Virus record (IMG/VR): IMGVR_UViG_3300033406_000369
Coordinates: 1 to 36,070 of that record
DNA: 36,070 bases
Source of the DNA: a virus
Lineage: Duplodnaviria; Caudoviricetes
Strand: one strand, 5' to 3'
The position numbers and the translations under genes are program-made. Position 1 is the first letter of the stretch, and every line of letters begins with the position of its first letter. The notes under the pieces are model-generated. The model worked only from the letters and a program-made list of their open reading frames with translations, did not search any database and was not told the DNA's origin. Below are positions 2,676 through 35,226 of the stretch, piece by piece.

Positions 2676-4105
2676 GTGCCGAACTCCATGAACATGGCGC
2701 GACCGCCGACCCCATTCGTTGCGCCAGTGCCATATCCATACACACCACCCGCGAGATACCAGCCGCCGGCAGCCCCCGCCTGACCGAATAGGCAAGTTCC
2801 GCTTGGCCCCCCGCCGTTACCGCCGCCCTCCTTGGCACCGCCGCCGCCGCTCGTGTAGTAGGTGACTCCGTCGATGACGATGCTCGTAGTGCCCCCGGTT
2901 CCACCGGTGCTGTTCTTGTTGGCAACCACTCCGCCGCCTCCGCCAACAGCGACCGGATAGGTCTGAGTGTCGCTCACGGCTGCAAAGAAGAAGCCGACAC
3001 CACCGGCGCCACCACCGGTGCCCCAGACAGAGTTCCCTCCGCCGGAACCGCCCACGAGAATGCCAAAAATGAACTTGGTCCCTGCGGTTGGGACGTAGTT
3101 TCCAGATGCGCCGAAATCGCGGATAGCCTTGGGAACGGCTCCACCGAGGTTGAGGGCGCCAAGCGCGGCCACGATCGCGGAATGAACGCCCGCCGAATGA
3201 ACCGGCAGTTCCTCGTCAGTGCCAGCGACCACAGTGGCTGCCGATGCCAGAACCAACTTAATCAGCCGGTCGGCCGAAAGATCAGTCTCAGCCGGCTCCG
3301 CGTCGCTGCCGGCAGCACCGTCAAGAGACAGGCCAGGGCCAACCTTCAGCTTGCGAACCGCTGGAACGAAACTTTCGAGCATGGCCGCGATTTGCTCGGT
3401 GGTCGAATAGGCGTCCAGGTCGAAGGCGTCGGAAAGCGTCTGCGCCACGGCCGCCCAATGCCGAGCCGAAAAGCCCGTGCCGACCGGCGTATTCGGCGCC
3501 GCGTTCGCGAGCTGATCGGCGAGCGCGGCGGCGGTGCCGGCGGCCGTAGCCGCGCCAGTGGCAGCTCCGGCAGCGACCGTGGCCGTTCCAGAAGCGCTGA
3601 CGGCAGTCGCGCGGGCCGTCTCGATCTCGGCGGCGGTTGGTCCAGCGACGGCCCCGCCCTCGCCGTTCGACACGTAAACGGCCCCCTCAGGCACGCTCGC
3701 GGCGTTGCCAGCGATAACGATTGACGACTCCTCGATGTCGTCGACCTTCTGCGACAGCTCGGCAACGCGCATAGCCGATCGATCCAGCGCCGCCGCATGC
3801 CCTGCCGCGTCATAGGTGTCGGTCGCGGTCGGGTCATAAACCTGCGTCATCGGCGTTTGCCGCACCATCGACACCGTGCCCGGTGTGGCAGGAAAGGCCG
3901 CAAGCGGAGCGATGGTCGCAACGCCTGCCGAGGAAAGCGTGACGGCGTAGTGCAGCCCGAGCGTCAGCGCCTGGCGCTCCCCCTCGTCAGGTACCAGGCT
4001 GACAATAAGCTGGGACCGCTCTTGCACCTGAATGCCGGTCGGGATTTCGGTCTCGACTCCTGTCCACGCTGCGGAGGCGCGGACAACGGTGGAAACAACG
4101 GTCAT
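2672..4105 (-). CDS. Tail fibre protein
   Basis: Start MTVVSTV at 4105 (ATGA coupling). N-terminal podovirus fibre attachment-like motif (RQTPMTQ...HAAALDRSAM), Ala/Thr-rich shaft, Gly-rich C-terminal domain. Confidence 0.75.
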   Translation of the reverse strand: MTVVSTVVRASAAWTGVETEIPTGIQVQERSQLIVSLVPDEGERQALTLGLHYAVTLSSAGVATIAPLAAFPATPGTVSMVRQTPMTQVYDPTATDTYDAAGHAAALDRSAMRVAELSQKVDDIEESSIVIAGNAASVPEGAVYVSNGEGGAVAGPTAAEIETARATAVSASGTATVAAGAATGAATAAGTAAALADQLANAAPNTPVGTGFSARHWAAVAQTLSDAFDLDAYSTTEQIAAMLESFVPAVRKLKVGPGLSLDGAAGSDAEPAETDLSADRLIKLVLASAATVVAGTDEELPVHSAGVHSAIVAALGALNLGGAVPKAIRDFGASGNYVPTAGTKFIFGILVGGSGGGNSVWGTGGGAGGVGFFFAAVSDTQTYPVAVGGGGGVVANKNSTGGTGGTTSIVIDGVTYYTSGGGGAKEGGGNGGGPSGTCLFGQAGAAGGWYLAGGVYGYGTGATNGVGGRAMFMEFGT

Positions 4106-6675
4106 CGAGCATCTCCGATCAGGGAAGGCATGCGGCGCGGTGTGGACTGGCCGGGCGCCCACCAGAAGCGCTGGCCGGCATCCTTGGCCGCCTGCTTCTC
4201 AAGGCGCTGAAAGCGCTCTGGCGCGCGCGGGTCGATCTGCAAAGCAAGCTGGTCGACGATCGCCCGCTGGAACGCGAGACGCGTCTGCCAGAGCGTCGAC
4301 CCTGGCATGTAGCGGGACAGCACATAAAGGCCGTCGCCTGCGAAATGTGTCTCTTGTCCCTTGGCCCAAAGCTGGCTGTTCTTGATCAGCCAATCGCCCA
4401 GCACGGTTTCGACGGCGCCAGCCTGTGGCCCAACGATGGTCGTCGCCCAGCTGTTGCCGTAACGGGTTTGGTCGGCAAACAAGAAGTCGCCGAAGATACC
4501 CAAGCCGCCACCTTGTAGGATGGCGGCGCCGATCGTCTTCGGGTCGTCGGCCCGCAACGGATCGCGGCCGTTGGCGATCTGCTTGAGCTGAAGGGCCATC
4601 AGCCCCATGGCCGACATCAGCGCGAAGCTGCCGGCGGCATGGCTGAGGCGCCGGCCGTCCCAACCGCGCGCAAAGGCCCGCATCATGTGCGAGGTGATGA
4701 AGGTCGCCGTGAACGACTTGTAGAGCGAGACCGCCCGGCGCGCCTCGCCGCCAAGCGTGCCCGGCCGGCTGTCGCCGAGCAACATGGCGCGGGTCAGTGT
4801 GTCACTCTCGATCACAGCGAAGGTCATTTCCGTGTCGACCATGCGGGCGATCGACGCGGCAACGCGGCGGGCGTTCTCGCTGCCGATCGCCGCCACATCC
4901 ATATGGCGGATGAACTTCGCACCTGGTCGCGGCTCGAACGGCTTAGCCTCGCCGATCAGCTTCCAGTCGGCCTCGCCGATGCCATAGCGCTGGAGCGTGT
5001 CACGGAAGGCCGGCGACAGATCGCCCCACGTCTTATCTGCGTCACTGGCGATCTTCGCCTGAAACTCCATGCCGAAGGCGTTGCGAAGCGTGGCGGTCCA
5101 GCGCCGAAGGCCGGAGGCGCGAATGACGGCGCTCGACGTCTTCGCAGCGATGCCGCTGCGGATTGCCTCGCCCATGAAGCGATCGCCTGCCCGAACATCG
5201 CCGGCAATGCTGTCGGCGATGAAGCCATGCTGCAGGGCGTCGATCTCGGCGCCAGGACGCGCCATGTCGGCGGCAGCGCGGCTGAGCACCTTCAGCGCCG
5301 GCACGTCGTTGAAGCGCGCCGTCATGGTCAGCAACGCCGGGTCGGAGATGGACGAGATGATGGCCGATCCGAGCTGCGAGGAGACCAGCCACGAGCGCAT
5401 ATCGCTCATGGCATTCGCCGCGCCTTCATGCACCGGCCGATTGGCATCGCCGGTCACCACCTGGCTCCACAAAGCGTCGATCTGGTTTTGCCCAGACTTC
5501 ACCGTGTCGCCGATCTTGAGGTTGCCTTTGACCGTCTTCACGAAGCCCTTGGCGTCAGCCATCGACCCTTCGGAAGCCAGCCGGCCGGGCTCTCGCTCAA
5601 ACAGGCCGTCGATGAACCGCTTGAGCGCTACCGGGTTCGGCCCCAGCACTTCCAGCTTGGCGATATCGGAAGCCATGCCCTCGATGTGATCGAGCATGGC
5701 CTGATAGACCGACTGGTGACCGCCGAACGCGTTGGCGTAAGTCATCCAGCTTTCGGCATCCTTGAACAGCAGCACGCGGGCGTCGGCGCGGCTGTTGGCC
5801 AGAGCCGGCCGGCCACGAACGGCGGCGCTCGGCCCGCCGTCGATCCCCTCGTTGACGATGCTGTCGAACACCTGGTCCAGCAGCTTGTCGAGCTTGCCGG
5901 GCGAAAGCGTTCGGCCCGTCGCGAAGCTGATCATGTTGTTCCGGTCGAGCAGCCTGTTGCGATAGAGAAATTCCTTCCACTGCTCACGGCCGGCCGTGCG
6001 CACCTTCATCGCGTCGTGGGTCGGGTTGGCAAGCCGCCAGTCCGCGCGGAAGGGGATGGCGCCACCAGCCTTGTTGAAGGCGATCCGAAGGTGCTCGGCC
6101 GTCTTTGTCCAGGCCTCGGCCACAGTGCGCGCCGTGGCATTGCCGGTCGCCAGGCCATAGAGTTCCCGCAGCACATCGCCCTCGAAGGCGGTTTCCGCCT
6201 TGAAGCCCAGCATCTTCGGCCGCATGGCCTCGATTGCCCCGGCAAACAGGGTGTGCGCCTCGGCCCGAATGCGATGGCTGGCCGCCACCACGTTCTCAAA
6301 GGTCATGCCGATCTCGAAGGGATCGCGGACCAGCATGGCGCGGATGGCGGCGGCGAGCGGCAGTTTCAGAAAGGTCGGCGCCTTTCCCTCGGCCTTCAGC
6401 GCGCCAACCGTTTCCGTATAAGTCGTCACCCGCCGCAACACGTCGGCTTGAGCCTTGGCGGTGCCGAAGGCGATCTGAGCCTTTCGCGCCGCCTCGGCCG
6501 CCGCTTCGTCGGCCGTCTCGATCGCCGCTTTGCGTATGGCATCGCGCGCCGTGTCGCCAGCGGCCTTGAAGTTGGCCTCGGCTTCGTCGAGCCAGTCGAG
6601 CAGCACCTTGCCCTTTTCAGGATCGACAGCGCCGGATGTGATTTTGGCAGTGAAGCAGAAACGCGGAGAGACCAT
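4102..6675 (-). CDS. Large internal virion (ejection) protein
   Basis: 857 aa from the ATG at 6675 (TGATG coupling); last gene of the ejection-protein cluster before the fibre; QGGGLGIFGDFL-type motif. Confidence 0.7.
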   Translation of the reverse strand: MVSPRFCFTAKITSGAVDPEKGKVLLDWLDEAEANFKAAGDTARDAIRKAAIETADEAAAEAARKAQIAFGTAKAQADVLRRVTTYTETVGALKAEGKAPTFLKLPLAAAIRAMLVRDPFEIGMTFENVVAASHRIRAEAHTLFAGAIEAMRPKMLGFKAETAFEGDVLRELYGLATGNATARTVAEAWTKTAEHLRIAFNKAGGAIPFRADWRLANPTHDAMKVRTAGREQWKEFLYRNRLLDRNNMISFATGRTLSPGKLDKLLDQVFDSIVNEGIDGGPSAAVRGRPALANSRADARVLLFKDAESWMTYANAFGGHQSVYQAMLDHIEGMASDIAKLEVLGPNPVALKRFIDGLFEREPGRLASEGSMADAKGFVKTVKGNLKIGDTVKSGQNQIDALWSQVVTGDANRPVHEGAANAMSDMRSWLVSSQLGSAIISSISDPALLTMTARFNDVPALKVLSRAAADMARPGAEIDALQHGFIADSIAGDVRAGDRFMGEAIRSGIAAKTSSAVIRASGLRRWTATLRNAFGMEFQAKIASDADKTWGDLSPAFRDTLQRYGIGEADWKLIGEAKPFEPRPGAKFIRHMDVAAIGSENARRVAASIARMVDTEMTFAVIESDTLTRAMLLGDSRPGTLGGEARRAVSLYKSFTATFITSHMMRAFARGWDGRRLSHAAGSFALMSAMGLMALQLKQIANGRDPLRADDPKTIGAAILQGGGLGIFGDFLFADQTRYGNSWATTIVGPQAGAVETVLGDWLIKNSQLWAKGQETHFAGDGLYVLSRYMPGSTLWQTRLAFQRAIVDQLALQIDPRAPERFQRLEKQAAKDAGQRFWWAPGQSTPRRMPSLIGDAR

Positions 6676-9600
6676 CAGCGCACCCCGTTCTTGATAAGGC
6701 AATCGGCGAATTCGGCCGCCACGGCCGCGTCGGCGTCGATCTCGTCGAGCAACTGACGGGCGGTCACCTTGCGCGTTGTGCCGTCTGGCGCGTCGAGTTC
6801 CAGTTCAAGGTCGCCAACCTCGTCGACCAGGCGCCGGAGATCTTCCTGCGCGGCGCGGCCGGCCTCGACCTGTTCGGTAAGGTGCGGAGAAACCTCGCGC
6901 CGGGCGAGCGCGGTTTCTTCTTGCGAAGGAGTTGACTTTCTGGACTTTTCTGGTCCAGTGCTTACATCAACCTCGTGAGAGGCATTCCCCATGTCATCAG
7001 TGACGTTCTGCAACTGGGACCGGCGGCCGGCAGTGCTGCTGAAACCGTCATATGAGGCCTTCGCCGTTCTTGCCCCCGGTAAGGATTGGTCAAAAGTCGA
7101 CGAGGCGGACGTGTTCCACACCGCTGGCGTTTTGCCGGAAGAGCGCTGGCGTGAGGTGTTCGAGCCGAAGTTCGGACCGCTCGACACGTCAAGGTTTGTC
7201 CAGTCAGAGCCTGCCTCGCGCGCCGCTGCCGAATAAAGCCTATCCATCTTGTCTTCGAGCGCGAGGCGCTCGACCGCGTCTTCGGACAGTCGCCAGCGTT
7301 CGTAGAGTTCATGGCCGCCGGCCTTTTTCGCCGAGAGCATGTGCGGCTCCCAAAGCTGGACTTCGCCCACAGTGCCATCCGGAAAACGCACCAGCACCTT
7401 GCGGTCAACATAGCCGCCGCTGGCAACTGCCCAACCTTCGTCCAGCACCTCAAAGCGTCGCGCGAGCTCCTCGACAACCAAGTCGGCTTTAGCGGGTGTG
7501 TCGACGACAAAGCCACCTCGCACGACATCGGTAAGCTCGGCCGTAGATTGATAGCCCTTGCGGGTCATCTTCTGCTCAGCCGTCGCGCGATCCTTGATCT
7601 TTGCGGCCTTGTATTCGACGCCCACCGCATTGGCGATTTCCTGACCGGCTGCGCTGAGCTCCTCCTGTCGCATCGGCGCGACAGCGTAGAGCGCATCCAT
7701 ATCCCGCTCCGGCACGCCCTCGAAGAAAGCGGCTTCGCCAGGGGCGCGGCCGGGAGACCGAACAGGAATAACGGCAATGTCTTCGATGTCGGCGCCTGCG
7801 ATCTTCGCTGCTGCGAAAGCCGCCCTCGGCGTCACCTCGAAGCCAAAGAGATCGGGACCATCGCCCGCCCGGAGCGATGCGCGGAACAGGCTCTGGAGCC
7901 GCTCGGCGACTTTCTCTCGGCCGGCCGCAACCGTCAGGCCATCGTCATGGAAGAACAGCCGGACTGCATCGGCGACGCTCTCGCGCACGTCCCCGTGCTC
8001 AATGTCGGCCTGGTCGAGAAGAGCGGCAACCGGCTCGCCGGTTTTCCGCGCGCGCTCGACCAGGCGATAGGCTTCCACCACGTCGCGGCCGGGATCGTCG
8101 AAGGAGAGGCGCCCATCGATGGCGGCCTGACGCACGCGGGCCGCAAGCGGCGCCGTGTCGCTCATGGCGCCAATGATTGCTTTCGACGTCGGGTCGATCG
8201 TCTCGTAAAGGCTCTTCACCACGTCGGGCGCATCGAAGCCGCGCTGCACCAGGGCGGCCGTCAGGCGATCGGCTCCCGCCTGCGACAGATAGCCATCGGC
8301 CGTCACCAGATCGCCCATCTCTTCCGGTGTCGCCATGCGCTGAAGCGCCTTGCGGGCAAAGGCGGCGTTGCGTGCCTGGCCGGCTTCGCCACCAGCGAAG
8401 GCGTCGAGCACCTCGGGCGACAACACCTTGGCGTCAACGGCCGCGCGCTCGGACGCTGAAAGCCGCGCCGTTGCCGTGCGGTTCGCCTCGACGGTGAAAG
8501 CCTGCCGCTCGGCAGGCGATAGCTCAGTCTCACGGACGCGCACTAGGACCGGCTGTTTCATGTCCTTGGCCTGGCCGAAGCCAGCGTCGATCAGTTCCTT
8601 TCGATAGGCCTCGGCCCGATCTGGCACCCGCGCGAACGCCTCACGGATGCCAAGCACCCGACCGTTACCGCTTTCGACAACGGCATCAGGGCCGACGACC
8701 GGCGCGCCCTCGCGCGCGGTCGGCGCGTCCATCAGAAGACGCGGATTGAGGTTGGCGGAGATCTCGGCGATCTGCGCCTGGCTCGCCGGCCGCGAGCGGT
8801 CGCGCGGTTGAAGCTCGGGCGGGAATAGTGGGTTGGCGGTGCCCGAAGTGTCGTGGCTGGTGATGAGCTTGTCCGCCTCGATCACCTGCCAGCGCGTCTT
8901 GAGGCTCTGGCCGTCACCCCAGACGATTTCGCCGCCCCGGAGATTCGGCAAGTCAGCGACCGACGAAAGCGGCTGGCCGCTGTCGATCGCCGCCCGTGCC
9001 ATCGCCTCGCCATCGAGGGCGGCGACCGCCGATCGCGCGTCGGGCATACCGGCCGCCGGTAGGTCGCGCGCTTCCTGGAAGCGAGCAACGGCGGCGACGT
9101 CTTGAGGCGACAGGTCTGGCTTCGGGGTGGCCGGCGCTTGCGGTGTTTCCGCGCGGGCTTCGAAGCGATGCCGAAGCCCGCCGGCCGCGCCACCGATCAG
9201 GCCGGCAAGACCGATCGAAAATGCGGCGTCGCCAAGCGAATATTCGCCGCCAAGCTCGGCGCGGTCATGCTGAAGGATGCCCTGCTCAAGGGCTTCCGTG
9301 CCGGCGTTGATCGCCGCTTCACGGCCGACACTGGCCACCAGGCCGACGCCCTTGACGGTCGGGATCGCCATGGATGCAACGTTGATCGGGTCGGCGACGT
9401 TGGCGGCAAGCCAACCAGACCAGGCCAACGCGTTGGCACTCAGGCCGTAAGTCCGCGAAGAGGCGTCGGACAGGCGACGCTCATGGTCTCTCCAGAGTTC
9501 GGATGCGCGGGCGCCGACATCGATGTGGGGTTCGATCGCCTTTCGCTGATCTTCCGGCAGTGTAGCAATGGCGCGGGCAAGTTTGGTCGTCGTAGCCACG

Positions 9601-9869
9601 TCCATCTCACCAGGACGCCAGAGACCGGATGCGTCGCTCCCCATTGTCTGCGCGGCCCAACCGAGCAACTCTCGGCCGGTTGCCTTGCGGAAGGCCGACG
9701 TCAGCTCGTTCGCGGCCGTATCCTTGAAGCCGGCGTAAGTGGTCGCCCAATCGACCGTGCTCCAGCCGGCGCCGACAAAAGCATCCCAGCCGGTCAGCGG
9801 GGCTTCGGCCGGCCGTACGGCGTCGCGGCGGGCGATGGTCTCGGACCAAGCTGCATCCCAGGAGGTCAT
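6675..9869 (-). CDS. Polyvalent internal virion protein with DdrB-like ParB domain and RelA/SpoT-type nucleotidyltransferase domain
   Basis: Lies between two ejection genes. ParB-like: ITSHD...ELQPRDR...GAPVVGPDAVVESGNGR (about 8480-8905). RelA/SpoT-like: KIKDRATAEQK, DVVRG, GYVD, EVQ, HELYERWR (about 7220-7705). Confidence 0.8.
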   Translation of the reverse strand: MTSWDAAWSETIARRDAVRPAEAPLTGWDAFVGAGWSTVDWATTYAGFKDTAANELTSAFRKATGRELLGWAAQTMGSDASGLWRPGEMDVATTTKLARAIATLPEDQRKAIEPHIDVGARASELWRDHERRLSDASSRTYGLSANALAWSGWLAANVADPINVASMAIPTVKGVGLVASVGREAAINAGTEALEQGILQHDRAELGGEYSLGDAAFSIGLAGLIGGAAGGLRHRFEARAETPQAPATPKPDLSPQDVAAVARFQEARDLPAAGMPDARSAVAALDGEAMARAAIDSGQPLSSVADLPNLRGGEIVWGDGQSLKTRWQVIEADKLITSHDTSGTANPLFPPELQPRDRSRPASQAQIAEISANLNPRLLMDAPTAREGAPVVGPDAVVESGNGRVLGIREAFARVPDRAEAYRKELIDAGFGQAKDMKQPVLVRVRETELSPAERQAFTVEANRTATARLSASERAAVDAKVLSPEVLDAFAGGEAGQARNAAFARKALQRMATPEEMGDLVTADGYLSQAGADRLTAALVQRGFDAPDVVKSLYETIDPTSKAIIGAMSDTAPLAARVRQAAIDGRLSFDDPGRDVVEAYRLVERARKTGEPVAALLDQADIEHGDVRESVADAVRLFFHDDGLTVAAGREKVAERLQSLFRASLRAGDGPDLFGFEVTPRAAFAAAKIAGADIEDIAVIPVRSPGRAPGEAAFFEGVPERDMDALYAVAPMRQEELSAAGQEIANAVGVEYKAAKIKDRATAEQKMTRKGYQSTAELTDVVRGGFVVDTPAKADLVVEELARRFEVLDEGWAVASGGYVDRKVLVRFPDGTVGEVQLWEPHMLSAKKAGGHELYERWRLSEDAVERLALEDKMDRLYSAAAREAGSDWTNLDVSSGPNFGSNTSRQRSSGKTPAVWNTSASSTFDQSLPGARTAKASYDGFSSTAGRRSQLQNVTDDMGNASHEVDVSTGPEKSRKSTPSQEETALARREVSPHLTEQVEAGRAAQEDLRRLVDEVGDLELELDAPDGTTRKVTARQLLDEIDADAAVAAEFADCLIKNGVR
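6991..7236 (+). CDS. Nested antisense gene, putative immunity protein for the RelA/SpoT-type domain
   Basis: GAGAGG RBS 8 nt before the ATG, GC3-biased codons and a globular aromatic/acidic 81-aa product. The overlapping part of the host ORF reads as low-complexity Ser/Thr/Gly sequence. Confidence 0.7.
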   Translation: MSSVTFCNWDRRPAVLLKPSYEAFAVLAPGKDWSKVDEADVFHTAGVLPEERWREVFEPKFGPLDTSRFVQSEPASRAAAE

Positions 9870-12598
9870 TGGCTGCCAAGCCCCCGTCGCTGGAGCGGAG
9901 GAAGATCGGAAGGCGTTACCGGCGGGGGCTGGTTGCCGAGACCACCCGGTGCGCTTCGAACGAAACGCCCCCGCAAATCATTGAGCGCGGAGAAATCCAG
10001 CACGAGTGACCCACCGCTCCGCAGCGCGGTCGTCACTGGCCTGAGTTCGCCGCCTTGCGGCAGATAGACGCCGTAGACCGCACCGCCGAGCGACGTCGGT
10101 CGCAACACGGCATGATGGCGAAGAAACGCTGCGTCGTGGCGGTAACCACCAACGGCGAAGGCACCGCCGGCCGCCTTCAGGTCATCGTCGGTCAGGCTGT
10201 CGAACAGACCGGAGAAGCGCGAAACCGTCATGCCCTGTGGCGCCGGCACGTCGGCGCCGTTGATCCGGGTGAAACTGCCCGTCACCTTCTCGACGGCGGC
10301 CTGATAGGCGTCGGCGTCATGCTCGCCGAACAACGTCTCGCCCACCGCGCGATCGGCGACATAAACAGCCGTCGCCGCGTCGGCGATCGTCGCCTGTACG
10401 GTCGGCGGATAGGTGTCCGGTGCAAGGCGGCCAAGCGTGTCGGCGAGACCCTCCTTGATCGTGTCGGCCTTGGCTTTGACGTCCGGTAGCGCCATCAGCT
10501 CCTGGCCGCGGAAAATCTGCTCGGCGATCGCCGGCCGATCTTTGCCGACCAGGCCGGCGACAATCATCATGTGCGCCTCGGCGCCATTCGCCATTTGCTC
10601 GACGGCGCCGGTGAAAGCGCGGTCATCCATCGCGCGGGCCATGCCGGTCACAAATTCGGCCTTGCCGCCATTGCCGAGCTTCGACCAGTGATCTTTCACG
10701 GCTCCAAGCTCGGCCGCCTGGAACGGCTTCACCGGTGCGCCAAGGTAGGACGCGGCGAGGCCCGCCTGTTCACCTCGACGGGCGAAGGCCGTCTGGAACT
10801 GTGGCGACGACGGCGCGGCATCATAGGCAAGCGGCGTGGTCGCGACGCGCCCGGCGCGCACGGCCACCGATACCGGATCACTGTCGCGCTTCTGGTTGAT
10901 CTCCGACGACACGGCCCGCATGGCATCGAGCCGCATCTGCTCAACCGGCATCACCACCGGTGCCGCCGCAAGTCGCCCCTCCTCGGCCGATAGCGCCTGT
11001 TCGAGATCGCTCGGCGGCATCCGCCAGGCGCCCGCCACGAAGGGCGCGATCTGCTCGGCGCGGGCAAGCTCGCGGAGCTTCAAGGCGCTTGAGCTATCAC
11101 CGGCTGCGGCGGCCGTCGCCAGTGTCTGCTTGGTGGAGGCGATCAACGCCGGGTCGGCGGCATAGCCAGAGCCAAAGAGCTTGGTGATATCGCCGGCGTC
11201 GTCGCGGGAAATGGCTGCGAGGTCGAGCAGCGCCTTCCGTTCATCGGCCTTGTCGGACTTCAGCTTGTCGAACCAAGCACTTTCAGCGCGGAAACGTCCC
11301 GTCGCCGATAGGGTCGAGCCCATGGGCTGCCCCAAGCGACCGAAGACGCTGCGGACATAATCCGCCGTCTCGCTGACCGGAATGACGGACGCGAATTCCT
11401 CGGCGGTGAACGCCGGCCCAAAGCGGCGCACCGCTTCGTCACGCCAGGCCGTCGCACGAGGGAGCTTGTCGTTGCCGGGCCCGGCGTTATAGGCCGCGAG
11501 CGCGACGGCCACGTTACCGTCGTAGCGATCGAGCAGCCCCTGAAAATAGGTGAGCCCGATCCGCCGATTAAGGTCGGGATCACTGAGAAGGCGCGCCTTC
11601 AGCCCTTGATCGTCGAGACCGGCGATATCATCGAGCCCCATCTGCCGGGCAACGCCGCGCGCCGTATCGGGCATGAGTTGAGCGACGCCAAGCGCACCCA
11701 TGGGGCTTTCAGCGCTTGCCTTACCGCCGCTTTCTTGTGGGATCACGCCACGGTCGAAAATCCAGGTCGCGGTGCCGCCATCGCGCACCCGGCCAATCGC
11801 GCCCAAACTCGACCGATCGTCGCCTGCACGAATGCCGGCGAGCGTCTGTTCCTCAAGCGCCGCATCGGCGCTCGAAAGGTAGCGCTGCCGGTCGAATGGA
11901 TCGAGCGCACCAAAGTTGGCCGGATCGGACAGGAGGGCCTTGGCTCTATTCGGATCGGTGCGGATCAACTCCAGCACCGCGCCCTGTTCGGTCGTGGCGC
12001 GGAAGGTGAGCTTGCGCTGTTGGGCCTGGACGGGCGTCAACAGGCCGGTGTTGGCGAGCCCATCAATGGCCTTGTCGCGATCGCCCATGATCGCCTGGCG
12101 TTCGGCATCGGAGCCTGCGGCGCCATAGCGGCGGAAATAGCTCTGGTCGGCAACGTCGAGGTTGGCGACCGCTGTCGAGGCTTCATTGCTGCGGGCAGAG
12201 CCATGCACCGCGCCACGGGCGGCGATCGACTGCCGCTCGAAATCAAAGCCCAGCGCTTCCCGCTCGCGCGGGTCGCTGACCATGTCGAGCGCTTCCTGTC
12301 GGAGCTGTGCCTCGGCGCTGGCAAATTCGCCGGGAGCGTTCTTGAAATCGGGGCTCTCGGTCCATTTGGTCTGAAGCTCGTCGAGCCCCTTCAGATAATG
12401 CGCCCGAGCGCCGATGCCTTCCGAGCCGTCGCGAAGCTGCTTGTTATAGTCGGCCACGCGGCCGACTGCCTCGCCCAAGCCGAAAACAGCCTGTCCCAAC
12501 GAACCAAGGCCCCGCCCGATAGCATCGGCCGGCTGAATGGTTGGCATCTGACCCGGGCCGGGCGGGGCGACTTGCGACTGGTAGACGGGTGCCGGCAT
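9866..12598 (-). CDS. Internal virion protein with lytic transglycosylase (SLT) domain
   Basis: QESGG...GALGVAQLMPDTA...ALAAYNAGPG...ETADYV SLT motifs in a 910-aa helical protein. Confidence 0.88.
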   Translation of the reverse strand: MPAPVYQSQVAPPGPGQMPTIQPADAIGRGLGSLGQAVFGLGEAVGRVADYNKQLRDGSEGIGARAHYLKGLDELQTKWTESPDFKNAPGEFASAEAQLRQEALDMVSDPREREALGFDFERQSIAARGAVHGSARSNEASTAVANLDVADQSYFRRYGAAGSDAERQAIMGDRDKAIDGLANTGLLTPVQAQQRKLTFRATTEQGAVLELIRTDPNRAKALLSDPANFGALDPFDRQRYLSSADAALEEQTLAGIRAGDDRSSLGAIGRVRDGGTATWIFDRGVIPQESGGKASAESPMGALGVAQLMPDTARGVARQMGLDDIAGLDDQGLKARLLSDPDLNRRIGLTYFQGLLDRYDGNVAVALAAYNAGPGNDKLPRATAWRDEAVRRFGPAFTAEEFASVIPVSETADYVRSVFGRLGQPMGSTLSATGRFRAESAWFDKLKSDKADERKALLDLAAISRDDAGDITKLFGSGYAADPALIASTKQTLATAAAAGDSSSALKLRELARAEQIAPFVAGAWRMPPSDLEQALSAEEGRLAAAPVVMPVEQMRLDAMRAVSSEINQKRDSDPVSVAVRAGRVATTPLAYDAAPSSPQFQTAFARRGEQAGLAASYLGAPVKPFQAAELGAVKDHWSKLGNGGKAEFVTGMARAMDDRAFTGAVEQMANGAEAHMMIVAGLVGKDRPAIAEQIFRGQELMALPDVKAKADTIKEGLADTLGRLAPDTYPPTVQATIADAATAVYVADRAVGETLFGEHDADAYQAAVEKVTGSFTRINGADVPAPQGMTVSRFSGLFDSLTDDDLKAAGGAFAVGGYRHDAAFLRHHAVLRPTSLGGAVYGVYLPQGGELRPVTTALRSGGSLVLDFSALNDLRGRFVRSAPGGLGNQPPPVTPSDLPPLQRRGLGSQ

Positions 12599-12599
12599 A

Positions 12600-13163
12600 T
12601 CACGTAATCCCGAAAGGACTGCTGGTGTCGAAATAGCCGTCGCCGTAAGCCGCGCCTGGCAGTCTCATCGCACCGCCGGTCGCCTTGCCGGCGGACGGCG
12701 TCGCATGCAGGGATTGCCACTGAAACGCCTGGGTGCCGGCGTTGAGCATGGTGGTCGCAGCGCCGAAGATGCCGGAAAACATCGCTTGCTTGGCTTGGCG
12801 TTTGTAGTTGGCCTCTTCGACGCGGTAACCGGTCGCATCGCGTACGGCGCCGTAGCGGGTCAAGAGCGCGTCGACCTCACCGGCGGCGGCAGAATTGGCG
12901 GCGAGCACCACCGGCGAGCCCACGGTGGGGTCAAGACCACTCGACGCGAAATAGCTCTGCTGTCCACCGAGTACGCCCGCAACGTCGCGGCGGATTTCCT
13001 GTTCCTTGTAAGCGCCCTGCGCCAACGCCAAGTCGGAGTTCTGCCGCGCCATTTGCGCCTGCACCTTGGCCGCCTTGGACTGCTCGACGCCGGTCATGAT
13101 CTGGCCGGCGCCGGAGAGAACACCGCCGCCGATCATCAGGGCGGTAACGGGATCGACGCACAT
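12600..13163 (-). CDS. Small internal virion protein (T7 gp14-like)
   Basis: MCVDPVT start, Gly/Ala-rich hydrophobic segments and coiled coil; follows tail tube B. Confidence 0.75.
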   Translation of the reverse strand: MCVDPVTALMIGGGVLSGAGQIMTGVEQSKAAKVQAQMARQNSDLALAQGAYKEQEIRRDVAGVLGGQQSYFASSGLDPTVGSPVVLAANSAAAGEVDALLTRYGAVRDATGYRVEEANYKRQAKQAMFSGIFGAATTMLNAGTQAFQWQSLHATPSAGKATGGAMRLPGAAYGDGYFDTSSPFGIT

Positions 13164-18002: not shown

Positions 18003-18683
18003 ATGAATACGCTTCAGCTTCCATCCCCGGCCTACAACGCACAGGCGATGACCGAAATATCCGCAGCAATAGTCAGCGATTTTCTAACCTGTATAATTCC
18101 AGGCGCCTCAACAGTAGCAAAGCTTATAGAACTGTATACAAAGAGCAGGCTAGAATCTGCGCAAAAAATACTAATAGAGCGCATCCGTCAAGGTGAAGTA
18201 AATATCGAATTCGATCCAGAATATGAAAATATAATTCCGAATTTTTTCAGTTATTTTCATGCCGCCCAGGAGGGAGAGACAAATAGAGTTCTATGTATAC
18301 TTTCTGATTTACTCATTGGGAACTCAAGCACAACTAACTCAGACTCCGGCTTTATCAAAAGATCATCTCGTCGACTCGCAGGTATGAATCAGGATGATAT
18401 AGCCTTTCTTGCCACGATAGAAAGCGTCTTTGAATGGAAATATCCTGGCAAGGAAAATAACACCTATCAGTTCATAGATGATAGCGACGTCACCAGCCAC
18501 AGATCTAGGACATACGTCGCGCCAGAGCAAAGTATTAATAGCAATCTGTCAGATTTGGCTTCAAGGGGGCTGCTATATCTCGGGGGAGATCCAGAGACTA
18601 TTGGCGGCATAAATTACTACAGATCAACCTATTTCTACGAAGTAATAGATTCCGCTACCAAATTTTCATCTATCAAGATTTAA
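18003..18683 (+). CDS. AT-rich accessory protein (possibly Abi-alpha-like)
   Basis: AAGGAAGGA RBS, much lower GC than the phage core, opposite strand to the late genes; helical N-terminal part and wHTH-like C-terminus (LSDLASRGLL). Family call is weak. Confidence 0.7.
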   Translation: MNTLQLPSPAYNAQAMTEISAAIVSDFLTCIIPGASTVAKLIELYTKSRLESAQKILIERIRQGEVNIEFDPEYENIIPNFFSYFHAAQEGETNRVLCILSDLLIGNSSTTNSDSGFIKRSSRRLAGMNQDDIAFLATIESVFEWKYPGKENNTYQFIDDSDVTSHRSRTYVAPEQSINSNLSDLASRGLLYLGGDPETIGGINYYRSTYFYEVIDSATKFSSIKI

Positions 18684-20014: not shown

Positions 20015-20196
20015 GCATCACAGATGATATCAGGATGCGCCGTTCGCGGAGGCGTTGCCGCCCTCGGTGATGTCATTCGGCCTCGGAGTTCAAGCCTTGG
20101 TCGAACAGCCAAACGGTGCATCGAAAGGAATCGCTTGTCAAGCGGGGCGAGGAAGTTACAACCTGCAACAAAAAGGTGAGTGGTTCGGAGGCTATC

Positions 20197-20523
20197 TTGA
20201 AGCACGCGGTTTTTGTTTTAACAGTTGGAGCCCTTCTTGTCGGCTGCCAAACAGCACAGCGTCCCTCCCCATTAAGTGACCCAACAGTTTCATATTGGGA
20301 ACTTCAATATCAAAAGTGCGTATTACATTATTCGAGAAAGATTTCATCTCAGTCCGGCTCCCCAATTGAGCTTGCATACGTTGTCCGCTCATTATGTCAT
20401 CTAGAAGAATTTGAGCTGGCTAGGGCCGTAGCGCCATTCGATAGTCCAGGAACGATGGAGGGCTACCGACAAGGAGCGTTAGAAGGTGCCGCAGGGATAA
20501 TTGCGAAAGCCAGGATGCGCTAA
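20197..20523 (+). CDS. Accessory lipoprotein
   Basis: TTG start at 20197 with GGAGG RBS gives MKHAVFVLTVGALLVG-C (lipobox LVGC); lower GC. Confidence 0.75.
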   Translation: MKHAVFVLTVGALLVGCQTAQRPSPLSDPTVSYWELQYQKCVLHYSRKISSQSGSPIELAYVVRSLCHLEEFELARAVAPFDSPGTMEGYRQGALEGAAGIIAKARMR

Positions 20524-25936: not shown

Positions 25937-26568
25937 TTGCCGTCCTCCGACCCATTTGAGACGGGTTTCGCCGTCTCGTCATCCTGTTCCGCTGGCGTAT
26001 ACCCAATTGAGACGGCACCCGAGCCCGGCTCGCGAGCCGAACTGGTTACGCCGAGTTCGTCGCCGTCGAGGTATTCCCACGGTGGCCGATCAGGTGAGAC
26101 GCCAAGCGAGGCACCGCCACCGAACACCATGTTGATGGTCGGAACGGCGTTGCCAGCCTCGTCGGTGGCCGCGAGGTTTGGAATGACGATGCCCTGCAAG
26201 CTGTCGGCGATCGCCTTCTGACGGTCGAAGGCCTCGACCCTCTTGCATCCCAGATACTCGGCGAGCTGCTCGACGGTCATGGTGAGCCAGGAGATTTTCC
26301 AGATGACCGGGTTCTTGCCGTGCGACAGCACATACTCGCGAAGCTGCCGCGTATTGATGTTCTTGGCGCCCTTCGGTCGGCCGGCCTGGCGCTCCCGTAC
26401 CTCGGCCTCGGCGACGATCTGATTGCGCTTCGCCTCATCGGCGATCGGCGGCGCGAAGAAGCCGAGCTGCTCGCCCTCGGCGGCAGCCTTCTCGGCGTCG
26501 ACCTCGTCGGCCAGTCGCCGCGCAATCTCCTTCTGGAGACCCCTCTTGCCGCTGTTCTGGTCAGCCAT
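25933..26568 (-). CDS. Putative terminase small subunit
   Basis: GRPKGAKN motif, GGAGG RBS, position upstream of terL. Confidence 0.65.
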   Translation of the reverse strand: MADQNSGKRGLQKEIARRLADEVDAEKAAAEGEQLGFFAPPIADEAKRNQIVAEAEVRERQAGRPKGAKNINTRQLREYVLSHGKNPVIWKISWLTMTVEQLAEYLGCKRVEAFDRQKAIADSLQGIVIPNLAATDEAGNAVPTINMVFGGGASLGVSPDRPPWEYLDGDELGVTSSAREPGSGAVSIGYTPAEQDDETAKPVSNGSEDGK

Positions 26569-26619
26569 TGAGGCCTCCAGACAGGCAATAGCTTGATATT
26601 TCTGGATATTTTATTGTTC

Positions 26620-26925
26620 TGCAACGGCTGCAACGGTCGAGAAATCGACGATGTTGCAAATCAGAAATGCTAAGTATCTGATTTATATATCTCTTTATAG
26701 TTTTAGCAACAGTGCAACAGCTGCAACGCCCTACGCGCGCGTATAGCATCCTTGAAAGCCATGAACGCGAACACGCGAAGGAGGTTTCCATATGCGCGCG
26801 CGACCCCGTTGCAGGCGTTGCAGCGTTGCGGCTTTCCATTTTCCCCTTTCGCATCAGCATCTTAAAAATCGACCATCTGATTTTTAGTGTTGCAAAAAGT
26901 GTTGCAAGTCGCCGAAAGCGTTGCG
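26620..26925. repeat. Iteron cluster, putative replication origin
   Basis: Twelve (T)GCAAC/GTTGC(A) copies in both orientations, at 26620, 26629, 26653, 26705, 26713, 26722, 26808, 26817, 26825, 26889, 26901 and 26920, around an AT-rich tract, just downstream of the helicase gene. Confidence 0.75.
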
Positions 26926-27124
26926 AGACCTTGAATTCATCAACGATATGAATGGCTTGCCCGCACCCGCCCGCCGCAGCGTCCACCTTCGCGTTCATTC
27001 CTGCCTGATCAGCACCTTGCGATGCAGAACTGGGCGCGCGTCCTCTGTGTTCGTCTGCTGGGTTCAGGGGCGGAGCAGAAAGCCCGGAACTCCGCCATTC
27101 TCGTCTTTGCGTCATGGCTGTCGC

Positions 27125-31229: not shown

Positions 31230-31559
31230 TCATCCCCCTTGATGCCCGGCCGCACGGACGGCGCGGCCGGGCTGCGCTGGGGAGGGAACTCCGGCGGGAT
31301 GGTTCGCCGGCCAATCGCGGGCGCGCTCACCCCCGCGAAAGCTCGTGACGGGCGCCAAGGGGCGCGCCGCTTGTTGTTCCAGACGATCAAGGGCTTCGAG
31401 CAGCCGCTTCCATTTCGGCCAGGAGGGAATGCATTCTTCGTGCATCCACCGGCTCATGGTTGACTGCGCAACGCCTGCTTTCTGCGCAATTCGGCTAGGT
31501 GTGAGGCCTAAAGCCTTGCTGCGCGCGAGAACCGCTACCATGTCAAACGGGTTATCCAT
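31230..31559 (-). CDS. Cro-like HTH regulator
   Basis: LTPSRIAQKAGVAQSTMSRW helix-turn-helix; divergent from the repressor. Confidence 0.8.
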   Translation of the reverse strand: MDNPFDMVAVLARSKALGLTPSRIAQKAGVAQSTMSRWMHEECIPSWPKWKRLLEALDRLEQQAARPLAPVTSFRGGERARDWPANHPAGVPSPAQPGRAVRAAGHQGG

Positions 31560-31657
31560 GACTGGATCGGTATCTTGATTTTGTCGGAAAGGTCAATACG
31601 AATCTTGGATCAGCCGCGTTCCAATTGCGCTGGCATCGTGGTCGTACGATTGGATCG
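31552..31657. promoter_or_regulatory. Immunity-region operators
   Basis: (T/C)TGGATC half-sites at 31562, 31605 and 31650; the first forms TTATCCAT-GA-CTGGATCG, similar to the perfect site at 32301. Confidence 0.55.
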
Positions 31658-31667
31658 GAGCGACCTC

Positions 31668-32267
31668 ATGACTGATAGAACGCTTAATGACGCCTACCTA
31701 TCCGAACTGCGGCGGTGGATGAAGGGGCATATCGAGAGACGAAAGATCTCACTCAATGCCGTCGCCAAGGGAACAGACACGGGCATAGCCACCATTTCGC
31801 GCCTCATGTCCGACGATAACGCCACCCTCCCGTCGCTACCGACCATATTCGCGCTTGAACGCTTTTTCGGCGACAAGGCACCGATTTTCGGCGGCGACTT
31901 CGAGTACTTTAGCAAAGACGAAGCCATGCCGGTGCCCGAAAAAAGCGCGCCGCACTTCGACTTACATGACGGGCTTGCTCTTTGGAAAATCACCTCGGGG
32001 GCTCTAGACTCCCTGGGCATCCACAAAGGCGATTTCATGGTGGTCGACATGAACTCCCGGCCTACACACAATGATATCGTGCTCGCTGAGATAAAGGACT
32101 GGGATCGCCCGGAGCCCTACGCGATCTTCCGCCGCTACGTCGCAAGCCCGGTGCCGATGCTCATCGCGGCGGCAACAAAATCTGACTTCCCGGGCCAAAT
32201 GTTGATCGACGACCGAAGCATTTCCATAGCAGGAACAGTTGTCGGAACTTACAAAGCCCTCAGGTGA
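31668..32267 (+). CDS. CI-like repressor (HTH plus degenerate S24 domain)
   Basis: ATG at 31668 with GGAG RBS; SLNAVAKGTDTGIATISRL HTH; C-terminal LGIHKGDFMVVD...DIVLA...IAGTVVG S24 fold. Confidence 0.82.
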   Translation: MTDRTLNDAYLSELRRWMKGHIERRKISLNAVAKGTDTGIATISRLMSDDNATLPSLPTIFALERFFGDKAPIFGGDFEYFSKDEAMPVPEKSAPHFDLHDGLALWKITSGALDSLGIHKGDFMVVDMNSRPTHNDIVLAEIKDWDRPEPYAIFRRYVASPVPMLIAAATKSDFPGQMLIDDRSISIAGTVVGTYKALR

Positions 32268-32300
32268 CATAAGCCATCCTTTCTAATTGTGGGTTGAATC

Positions 32301-32318
32301 TGATCCAAGTTTGGATCA
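32301..32318. promoter_or_regulatory. Perfect palindromic operator before the rightward early operon
   Basis: TGATCCAA-GT-TTGGATCA. Confidence 0.65.
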
Positions 32319-32353
32319 ATATCCCACTCGCTCTTTGCGAGAGGGAACCCACA

Positions 32354-32713
32354 ATGGCACCTATGAAGAAACCTAATACCGATGACATCGCCCTAGGCGC
32401 CGCCATCCGGCAACGCCGTTTGCTGCTCGCTATCTCTCAGGAGAAGTTGGCCGATGGCCTAGGCATCACCTTCCAGCAGATCCAAAAATACGAAAAAGGC
32501 ACGAACAGGGTTTCCTGGTCGCGCCTGGTGCAAATCGCCAAAGCTCTGAACTGCTCGATCGCCGGCCTGATGACCCTCGCCGAGCCCAAGGAAAACGAGC
32601 TGGCGGGCGTCATCGACCCCGAAACGCTGTTCGTCGTCCGGACCATGCAAGGCACGTCGCCGGAGAAACGGGCACTCATCAGGCGCGTGATCCTTGCCCT
32701 GGTGGAGGGCTAG
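32354..32713 (+). CDS. XRE-family HTH regulator
   Basis: SQEKLADGLGITFQQIQKYEKGTNRVS; ATG at 32354 with GAGGG RBS. Confidence 0.88.
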   Translation: MAPMKKPNTDDIALGAAIRQRRLLLAISQEKLADGLGITFQQIQKYEKGTNRVSWSRLVQIAKALNCSIAGLMTLAEPKENELAGVIDPETLFVVRTMQGTSPEKRALIRRVILALVEG

Positions 32714-35152: not shown

Positions 35153-35226
35153 TGGAGGCCACGGAGGGAATCGAACCCCCGTACACGGATTTGCAATCCG
35201 CTGCGTAACCACTCCGCCACGTGGCC
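35153..35226 (-). tRNA. tRNA-Cys(GCA), prophage attachment site
   Basis: GGCCACG acceptor stem, GCA anticodon, TTCGATT T-loop, encoded CCA, 74 nt. Confidence 0.97.

Follow-up and report, generated by a model that had tools for sequence, protein, structure and literature searches.

Tas1 and Apk2 are toxins that make (p)ppApp, and small cognate proteins block these enzymes by occluding the acceptor site (PMC10083569, PMC11782079, PMC12226406). In the Tas1/Apk1-Tis1 system of P. aeruginosa (PDB 6OX6), the synthetase is carried by a PAAR T6SS effector, and its partner has about 75–80 amino acids (PMC10083569, PMC11782079). In temperate phages, Apk2 is the C-terminal toxin of a protein with an N-terminal MuF domain, and the small genes linked to it (iapK, for IapK/BcTis1, and aph1) are separate genes downstream of apk2 (PMC10083569, PMC12226406). 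The role of toxin domains carried by phages is unknown, according to PMC10083569.

RelA/SpoT domains are also found together with DdrB-ParB domains in polyvalent proteins (Iyer et al. 2017, PMC5512222), where they are proposed to trigger an alarmone-like shut-down. The section on these domains names phages of Spirochaetes and ε-proteobacteria and does not mention an immunity gene, and neither “overlap” nor “opposite” is used anywhere in its main text. The available text of a study of the carriers of exported synthetases (PMC12691689) mentions neither antisense genes nor virions. Finally, the T6SS effector gene tle3 of P. aeruginosa contains an antisense ORF, olg1, that is translated and under purifying selection. 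olg1 is young, nearly restricted to its species, and in the directly antisense frame, and it is not the immunity gene, which is the separate gene tli3 (PMC8850804).

The prophage and its synthetase domain

The window that we analyzed (the whole stretch of DNA, 36,070 nucleotides) belongs to contig C141, in a 5.3-Mb genome with 63% GC. It has ordinary bacterial genes on its flanks and is an integrated podovirus-type prophage. Among named organisms, the closest locus is in Pleomorphomonas koreensis (78% identity over the synthetase domain). The terminase, portal, capsid, and tail genes of the prophage are followed by a T7 gp14-like gene, an SLT-domain gene, the large gene that contains the small alarmone synthetase (SAS) domain (the carrier gene), and a phrog_684 virion gene:

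6675–9869, minus strand: carrier gene, 1064-aa polyvalent protein, predicted internal virion (ejection) protein (from the ORF and its gene neighbors)
7230–7712, minus strand: Tas1-like SAS domain, carrier residues 720–880 (sequence profile and fold)
8532–8915, minus strand: ddrB-like ParB domain, carrier residues 319–446 (Pfam PF18763, E = 2.1e-31)
6678–6905, minus strand: C-terminal segment of the carrier, residues 989–1064, retained with or without the cassette described below
4102–6702: phrog_684 virion structural gene, neighbor of the carrier gene (Pfam/PHROG searches)
9866–12598: SLT-domain gene, neighbor of the carrier gene (Pfam/PHROG searches)
12600–13163: T7 gp14-like internal virion gene (Pfam/PHROG searches)

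Gene order is an established basis for placing the internal virion proteins of podoviruses. Because the carrier gene belongs to a cluster of gp14, SLT, and large-protein genes after the tail genes, as is usual for podovirus ejection proteins, we predict that its product is an internal virion (ejection) protein. A homolog of the downstream virion-protein neighbor is present at 66 of the 80 SAS loci that we analyzed (the best 80 of 109 SAS matches).

As a large multidomain protein with DdrB-ParB and RelA/SpoT-type domains, the carrier fits the definition of a polyvalent protein (PMC5512222). Like Apk2, it is a predicted virion protein of a prophage with a synthetase domain and a small linked gene (PMC10083569, PMC12226406). 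Unlike Apk2, it has no MuF domain (ddrB-ParB was the only domain found in Pfam, PHROG, and NCBIfam searches), its SAS domain is internal, with 184 residues C-terminal of it, and its syn3 motif differs.

The Pfam model for RelA/SpoT did not match the full carrier protein. The SAS domain is similar to Tas1 in sequence (phmmer E = 1.4e-4; profile E = 5.5e-16), and its AF2 model (pLDDT 88.8) has the SYNTH fold, with Foldseek TM scores of 0.79 to SaEAS (8vx3) and 0.76 to Tas1 (6ox6_A). The key residues are K759, K767, D781, R784, G819-Y820, D822-R823-K824, E836, Q838, and H853, so the putative catalytic residues (K, DxxR, GY, and ExQ) are all intact. K759, K767, D781, R784, E836, and Q838 do not vary in any of 68 aligned SAS rows, although the GY and ExQ motifs doubled as search patterns, so that their conservation partly reflects how the rows were selected. 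Among 50,697 INPHARED records of isolated phages, neither the SAS domain nor the small protein had a match.

Motifs linked to base specificity are GxN in the Apk type and SxH in the RSH type (PMC12226406). Tas1 has GYSGVN, while the family in the window has GYxDRK, and the Apk syn3 signature (GxN after GY) is absent. Because the residues after GY are DRK, unlike either type, the product may differ from (p)ppApp, and GYxDRK may mark a new substrate.

The small antisense gene and its linkage to the domain

The first-pass annotation, which was made from the letters of the window, described an 81-codon plus-strand ORF (6991–7236) behind the SAS domain and within the 1064-aa minus-strand ORF. We confirmed these coordinates:

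6991–7236, plus strand: nested antisense gene, 81 aa, ATG start, predicted immunity protein (homologs, position, selection, and AF2 model)
6977–6982, plus strand: Shine-Dalgarno sequence GAGAGG, 8 nt before the ATG (sequence; most relatives have a run of 4–6)
6932–6968, plus strand: putative sigma70-type promoter, TGGACT-N16-TACATC, with a second −35-like hexamer (TTGACT) 9 nt upstream (family pattern)
6904–7772, no strand: whole cassette of SAS domain, small gene, and promoter (an in-frame block that is missing from the relative L127)

The small ORF overlies carrier residues 879–960, and its stop codon lies at the final helix of that SAS domain. The carrier frame was said to stay open and to regain a C-terminus coupled to the next gene, and it does: residues 989–1064 are retained, and the likely ATG of the next gene directly abuts the carrier's stop codon.

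To examine the linkage, we picked loci by alignment of the SAS domain alone, and kept the best 80 of 109 matches in IMG/VR. Each of these best 80 of 109 has an antisense small ORF at the domain (77 nested and 3 convergent), and the end of the ORF lies within −4 to +64 nt of the end of the domain. The register is identical in 79 of the best 80 of 109, with 74 ATG, 5 TTG, and 1 GTG starts. In the 77 nested loci, the carrier frame continues for another 118–1500 residues, while in the 3 convergent loci it stops. A profile of the small protein matched 60 of the best 80 of 109 with E ≤ 1e-3 and 9 more weakly, with no match in the other 11. Of the 20 loci below the threshold, 16 are from one supported SAS clade with diverged small ORFs. 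One of the divergent subgroups is linked to the core weakly (hhalign probability 68%), and the other is linked only via the first.

These 80 loci, together with the window and L111, give 82 rows that represent 71 distinct small genes. We defined a fixed ORF test (a start codon, a Shine-Dalgarno run of at least 4, 55–105 codons, and a stop near the end of the domain), which was passed by 67/71 distinct loci but by just 43/1429 control positions elsewhere in the same carrier genes. When we scanned all ORFs of at least 450 aa in 103 loci more strictly, for a promoter, a Shine-Dalgarno sequence, and an ATG, the only nested antisense genes were those at SAS domains.

We found 14 SAS loci in bacterial genomes, of which one (L114) is cut at the domain and was not counted as informative. 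The remaining 13 all have a member of the small family: 11 are nested, L116 is convergent, and L125 is co-oriented behind a frameshifted SAS gene. Whether homologs would sit next to or antisense to RelA/SpoT domains was a check that the first-pass annotation had proposed. An antisense small ORF does so at 80/80 viral loci (the best 80 of 109, of which 60 match the profile), and a member of the family sits next to the domain at 13/13 bacterial loci. When loci were picked by the small protein instead, the SAS domain was head to head with it in the first 12/12 viral loci. Among 36 metagenome loci picked in this way, the SAS domain was antisense in 19 and co-oriented in 1, and in 16 none was seen in the available DNA; 5 of these 16 contigs end at the small gene. 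Like the genes for the immunity proteins Tis1 and IapK, the small gene is tightly linked to a synthetase, and this linkage strongly implies an immunity role.

The small protein matches seven close called proteins, and the family has 194 clusters at 50% identity. There were no sequence matches in Pfam, PHROGs, NCBIfam, or PDB, and none to Tis1. The AF2 model (pLDDT 82.3) has a four-strand sheet and two helices, with a WDxRPA motif, and W, D, R, P, A, W, F, and F are invariant in the family. Foldseek found nothing in BFVD with E ≤ 0.001, and a search of the ESM Atlas gave no usable match. Among 350,542 chains, Tis1 (6ox6_B) ranked 7th, which is a weak match (E = 1.3, TM = 0.39); with VIA, the match to Tis1 was also weak (Z = 3.0, rmsd 3.6 Å over 59 residues) and was tied with PWWP and KorB chains. 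The small protein is similar to Tis1 in size, but the resemblance in fold is weak (PMC10083569, PMC11782079).

Some members of the family are longer. Among the 149 family representatives listed, 64 exceed 100 aa, some of them only because of long start calls. Tandem repeats (up to five) or hydrophobic fusions of the small domain are found in P0009, P0012, P0051, P0059, P0087, P0089, P0093, P0094, and P0141, while P0099 seems to be an unrelated repeat protein. Some loci (L117:6317–7915, minus strand; L155:308–1906; L152:2–724; proteins P0008 and P0021) have a second antisense gene beside the nested gene. Its product has membrane segments at the N-terminus, followed by the small domain in two or three tandem copies, and is possibly a membrane-anchored poly-immunity protein.

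Constraint on both frames and signals for expression

In this antisense register, the small frame and the carrier frame have their third codon positions in common. The GC3 bias that had been cited for the small ORF is therefore uninformative, and we rejected it as evidence. GC1/GC2/GC3 are 0.64/0.49/0.72 in the small frame and 0.49/0.64/0.73 in the carrier frame over the same stretch, and this pattern in the carrier is unlike that of every other segment of it that we listed. That GC1 exceeds GC2 in the small frame favors it as the gene. Over the overlap in relatives, Ser and Thr make up 27% of the carrier frame and 16% of the small frame, and aromatic residues make up 3% and 10%, respectively.

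We tested for selection with third-position transversions in 27 non-overlapping pairs. Relative to the neutral rate, changes that affect the small protein alone occur at 0.23 (14/367 vs. 75/448, p = 9e-10), or 0.26 once stop-adjacent classes are removed, and changes over the small gene that affect the carrier alone occur at 0.43 (p = 7e-5); the pairs share no sequences but are uneven over clades, so these p values are optimistic. Inside the SAS domain, the ratio is 0.20 for the coding frame and 1.04–1.10 for the control antisense register. (The pair of the window and L016 by itself has too few sites for this test.) Both frames are under constraint, and the small frame more strongly, which answers the earlier suggestion to compare selection in the two. 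Because the carrier frame is constrained at 0.43, it is not mere filler: of the earlier description as “Ser/Thr/Gly-rich filler,” the richness in Ser and Thr stands, but the filler does not.

Could the small ORF be a shadow of conservation in the carrier frame? Its register is the one where shadows arise, and the carrier frame is somewhat constrained. However, sites that are free in the carrier but change the small protein are depleted four-fold, with 1.10 for the null control; the Shine-Dalgarno sequence and the promoter are conserved; and the gene persists past the carrier's stop codon (L035, L047, L055, and L116) and where there is no carrier gene at all. The un-nested copies refute the shadow reading, to which we give almost no credence. 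By all of these sequence-based measures, the small ORF is a real, conserved gene. The linkage and the selection bear out the original proposal of a real nested antisense gene that is tied to a Tas1/Apk-like domain, within a predicted virion protein.

Long natural nested antisense genes whose function is clear are rare among prokaryotes. Unlike olg1, the small gene represents an old family that is tied to a toxin domain across many phages. In the mostly open-access literature that we searched, we found no report of a phage virion gene with an immunity gene nested antisense within it; the impression that the arrangement was undescribed has thus held up so far.

The signals for expression that were noticed first are all in the window: the GAGAGG ribosome binding site 8 nt upstream of the start, and the promoter-like hexamers TTGACT (6932), TGGACT (6941), and TACATC (6963). 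The window's copy of the promoter is weak (7/12 matches to the consensus), and a generic promoter scan of positions 6700–7900 found no promoter. In most relatives, a GGAG(G) Shine-Dalgarno sequence is accompanied by a TTGAC-N17-TATATY promoter pattern. We scored promoters at 67 loci, after excluding four loci with mis-picked starts: 78% had a score of at least 8, as compared to 4.7% of 447 control windows. In 42 of the 65 loci with a promoter candidate, the end of the −10 box is 19 nt ahead of the start. The support for the putative promoter in the window comes from the family, and not from the window's copy. Across the family, these conserved signals would allow expression apart from the late operon. 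A terminator-like hairpin at 6895–6913 is at chance level, and we dismissed it.

Other arrangements, origin, and predicted role

The pair can be gained or lost as a unit. A close relative (L127; 82–84% DNA identity in the flanks) lacks window positions 6904–7772 as one block: the SAS domain, the small gene, and the promoter are missing together, and the carrier frame is intact. In L118, from Pseudovibrio, one protein contains two SAS domains, and a separate nested gene lies behind each of them.

The proteins that carry the SAS domain vary. Besides ParB, relatives of the polyvalent type carry ART-PolyVal, InPase, LPD38, or lysozyme domains, and other carriers have a methyltransferase, are adjacent to the portal gene, or are bacterial genes adjacent to a kinase and a phosphatase. 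Of the convergent viral loci (L035, L047, and L055), L055 uses another register. In L035 (1057–2718), the SAS domain is fused behind a methyltransferase, and a P22-like portal is adjacent; the carrier stops 24 codons past the domain, and the small gene is convergent. In L116 (3376–5240; Ancylobacter crimeensis), the SAS domain and a convergent small gene lie behind PP2C and Ser/Thr kinase genes, outside of an ejection cluster. Genes for PP2C and Ser/Thr kinases are typical neighbors in T6SS clusters.

Other loci are co-oriented. In L147, the SAS gene is followed by four tandem copies of the small gene, and in L125 (4453–5192), a direct repeat of about 100 nt flanks the frameshifted SAS gene and its small gene, with a portal gene farther downstream. 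This is the usual layout of a toxin and its immunity gene. Also, in P0142, the SAS domain (profile E = 1.6e-21) and the small domain are fused in one chain.

This fusion resembles the fused toxSAS systems such as CapRel (PMC11782079). Together with the stand-alone, co-oriented pair at L125, beside the portal gene, it raises the possibility that the small protein is a regulator or sensor: a type II antitoxin with triggered release, which would make the cassette a CapRel-like abortive-infection or addiction module that rides in a virion gene. We consider this unlikely. There is a virion neighbor at 66 of 80 loci (the best 80 of 109), and at these the domain always belongs to a large protein of the virion type, which favors delivery over a switch in the cytoplasm. 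Also, the small gene occurs as orphan and tandem copies, a pattern that is typical of immunity genes.

Orphan small genes in bacterial genomes are found beside tRNA-like or IS sequences (L098, L171, and L172) or in a satellite-like region (L173). Those of L171 (1450–1941, minus strand) and L172 (528–812, plus strand) adjoin a tRNA-like sequence between housekeeping genes and are candidates for captured immunity genes. In all, 4 of 400 other genomes of the order have a match to the small family. These orphans without SAS domains (L098 and L171–L173), as well as the 16 metagenome loci where no SAS domain was seen, the fusions to membrane segments, and the tandem repeats, fit orphan immunity, but they also fit a wider role.

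The orphans and the membrane-segment fusions could also mean that the small gene is unrelated to the enzyme and merely hitchhikes with it, for instance as a lysogen moron for superinfection exclusion. Alternatively, its transcript, which would lie within the late operon, could act at the RNA level and silence leaky late transcripts. But the pair has been kept together through joint duplication, joint loss, fusion, and four layouts, and the selection on amino acids and the invariant W, D, R, P, A, W, F, and F residues require a protein. We think it quite improbable that either of these is the explanation.

The un-nested, co-oriented, fused, and lone copies also bear on the origin of the overlap. 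Because they exist, we favor an origin by read-through: they suggest that a convergent pair entered the carrier gene in frame and was then read through, rather than that the small gene arose de novo by overprinting. The small gene is probably an independent family that the Ser/Thr-rich frame of the carrier reads through, and not a young overprinted ORF, so the term “overprinted” in the first-pass annotation, when set against this family of 194 clusters, probably has the relationship the wrong way around. In a tree of 89 SAS domains (a quick method, and unrooted), six un-nested rows require 5 changes and are not clustered (71/500 shuffles were as low). Without a root, the tree gives no order for the nested, convergent, and co-oriented states.

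The small gene is likely to encode an immunity protein that is cognate to the SAS domain, so that the two would form a mobile toxin/immunity cassette in frame with the carrier. The cassette is about 870 bp, with the Tas1-like synthetase domain on the minus strand and the predicted 81-aa immunity protein on the plus strand. We infer the toxicity, the packaging and ejection, the expression in the lysogen, and the direct inhibition, as follows. The carrier protein would be a late product that is packaged in the head and enters the next cell by ejection. There, the SAS domain would pyrophosphorylate a nucleotide, most probably converting ATP to (p)ppApp, and growth would stall. The sigma70 polymerase of the bacterium would transcribe the small gene from its own antisense promoter, so that it could be on in the lysogen, despite the silence of the late operon there, as well as during assembly and shortly after entry of the phage DNA into a new cell. 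The small protein would occlude the active site of the SAS domain, as Tis1 and IapK do.

Why might the gene be nested? The SAS domain is internal and the C-terminus of the carrier is conserved with or without the cassette, so nesting would let the carrier frame continue to that C-terminus. If the antidote gene instead followed in the late operon, the lysogen would not express it, and domain shuffling could part it from the toxin. An antisense gene with its own promoter would avoid both problems. Toxin and antidote would form one domain-sized unit that could recombine into different polyvalent proteins without being separated. This differs from Tas1-Tis1 and from Apk2, with its separate downstream iapK and aph1, in that one partner gene is antisense and nested and has its own putative promoter (PMC10083569, PMC11782079, PMC12226406). 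We noticed no hydrolase gene beside the cassette in the window.

More tentatively, we speculate that a widespread group of temperate podophages inject an alarmone-type toxin along with their DNA and hide the antidote, with a promoter of its own, antisense within the same gene. Because the incoming genome must survive and be transcribed to provide the antidote, destroying the phage DNA would be fatal to the bacterium, and lysogens would be immune. The unit would be mobile, bacteria and satellites would capture orphan antidotes, and GYxDRK might mark a new substrate. This broader scenario is possible, but we would not bet on it as a whole.

The nested gene is an old one that is present in dozens of phages, and it would join an antidote to an internal toxin domain while the structural gene stays uninterrupted. 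The gene belongs to a new family of small proteins that has no Pfam, PHROG, or NCBIfam model and is easily overlooked by annotation, and the synthetases represent a new class of carrier and motif. The role of phage-carried toxin domains becomes testable, with L127 and the window as a natural pair without and with the cassette.

Other parts of the window may also be of interest. A tRNA-Cys gene near its right end (about 35153–35226, minus strand; contig positions 55977–56050) is a possible integration site. Between the capsid and antirepressor genes, a low-GC island (42–45% GC) contains an ORF of 226 amino acids (18003–18683, plus strand) that has no match in Pfam or PHROG and is likely a moron. 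There are more lower-GC stretches with unannotated ORFs at 20116–20523 (plus strand), 26500–27000, and 31500–32500.
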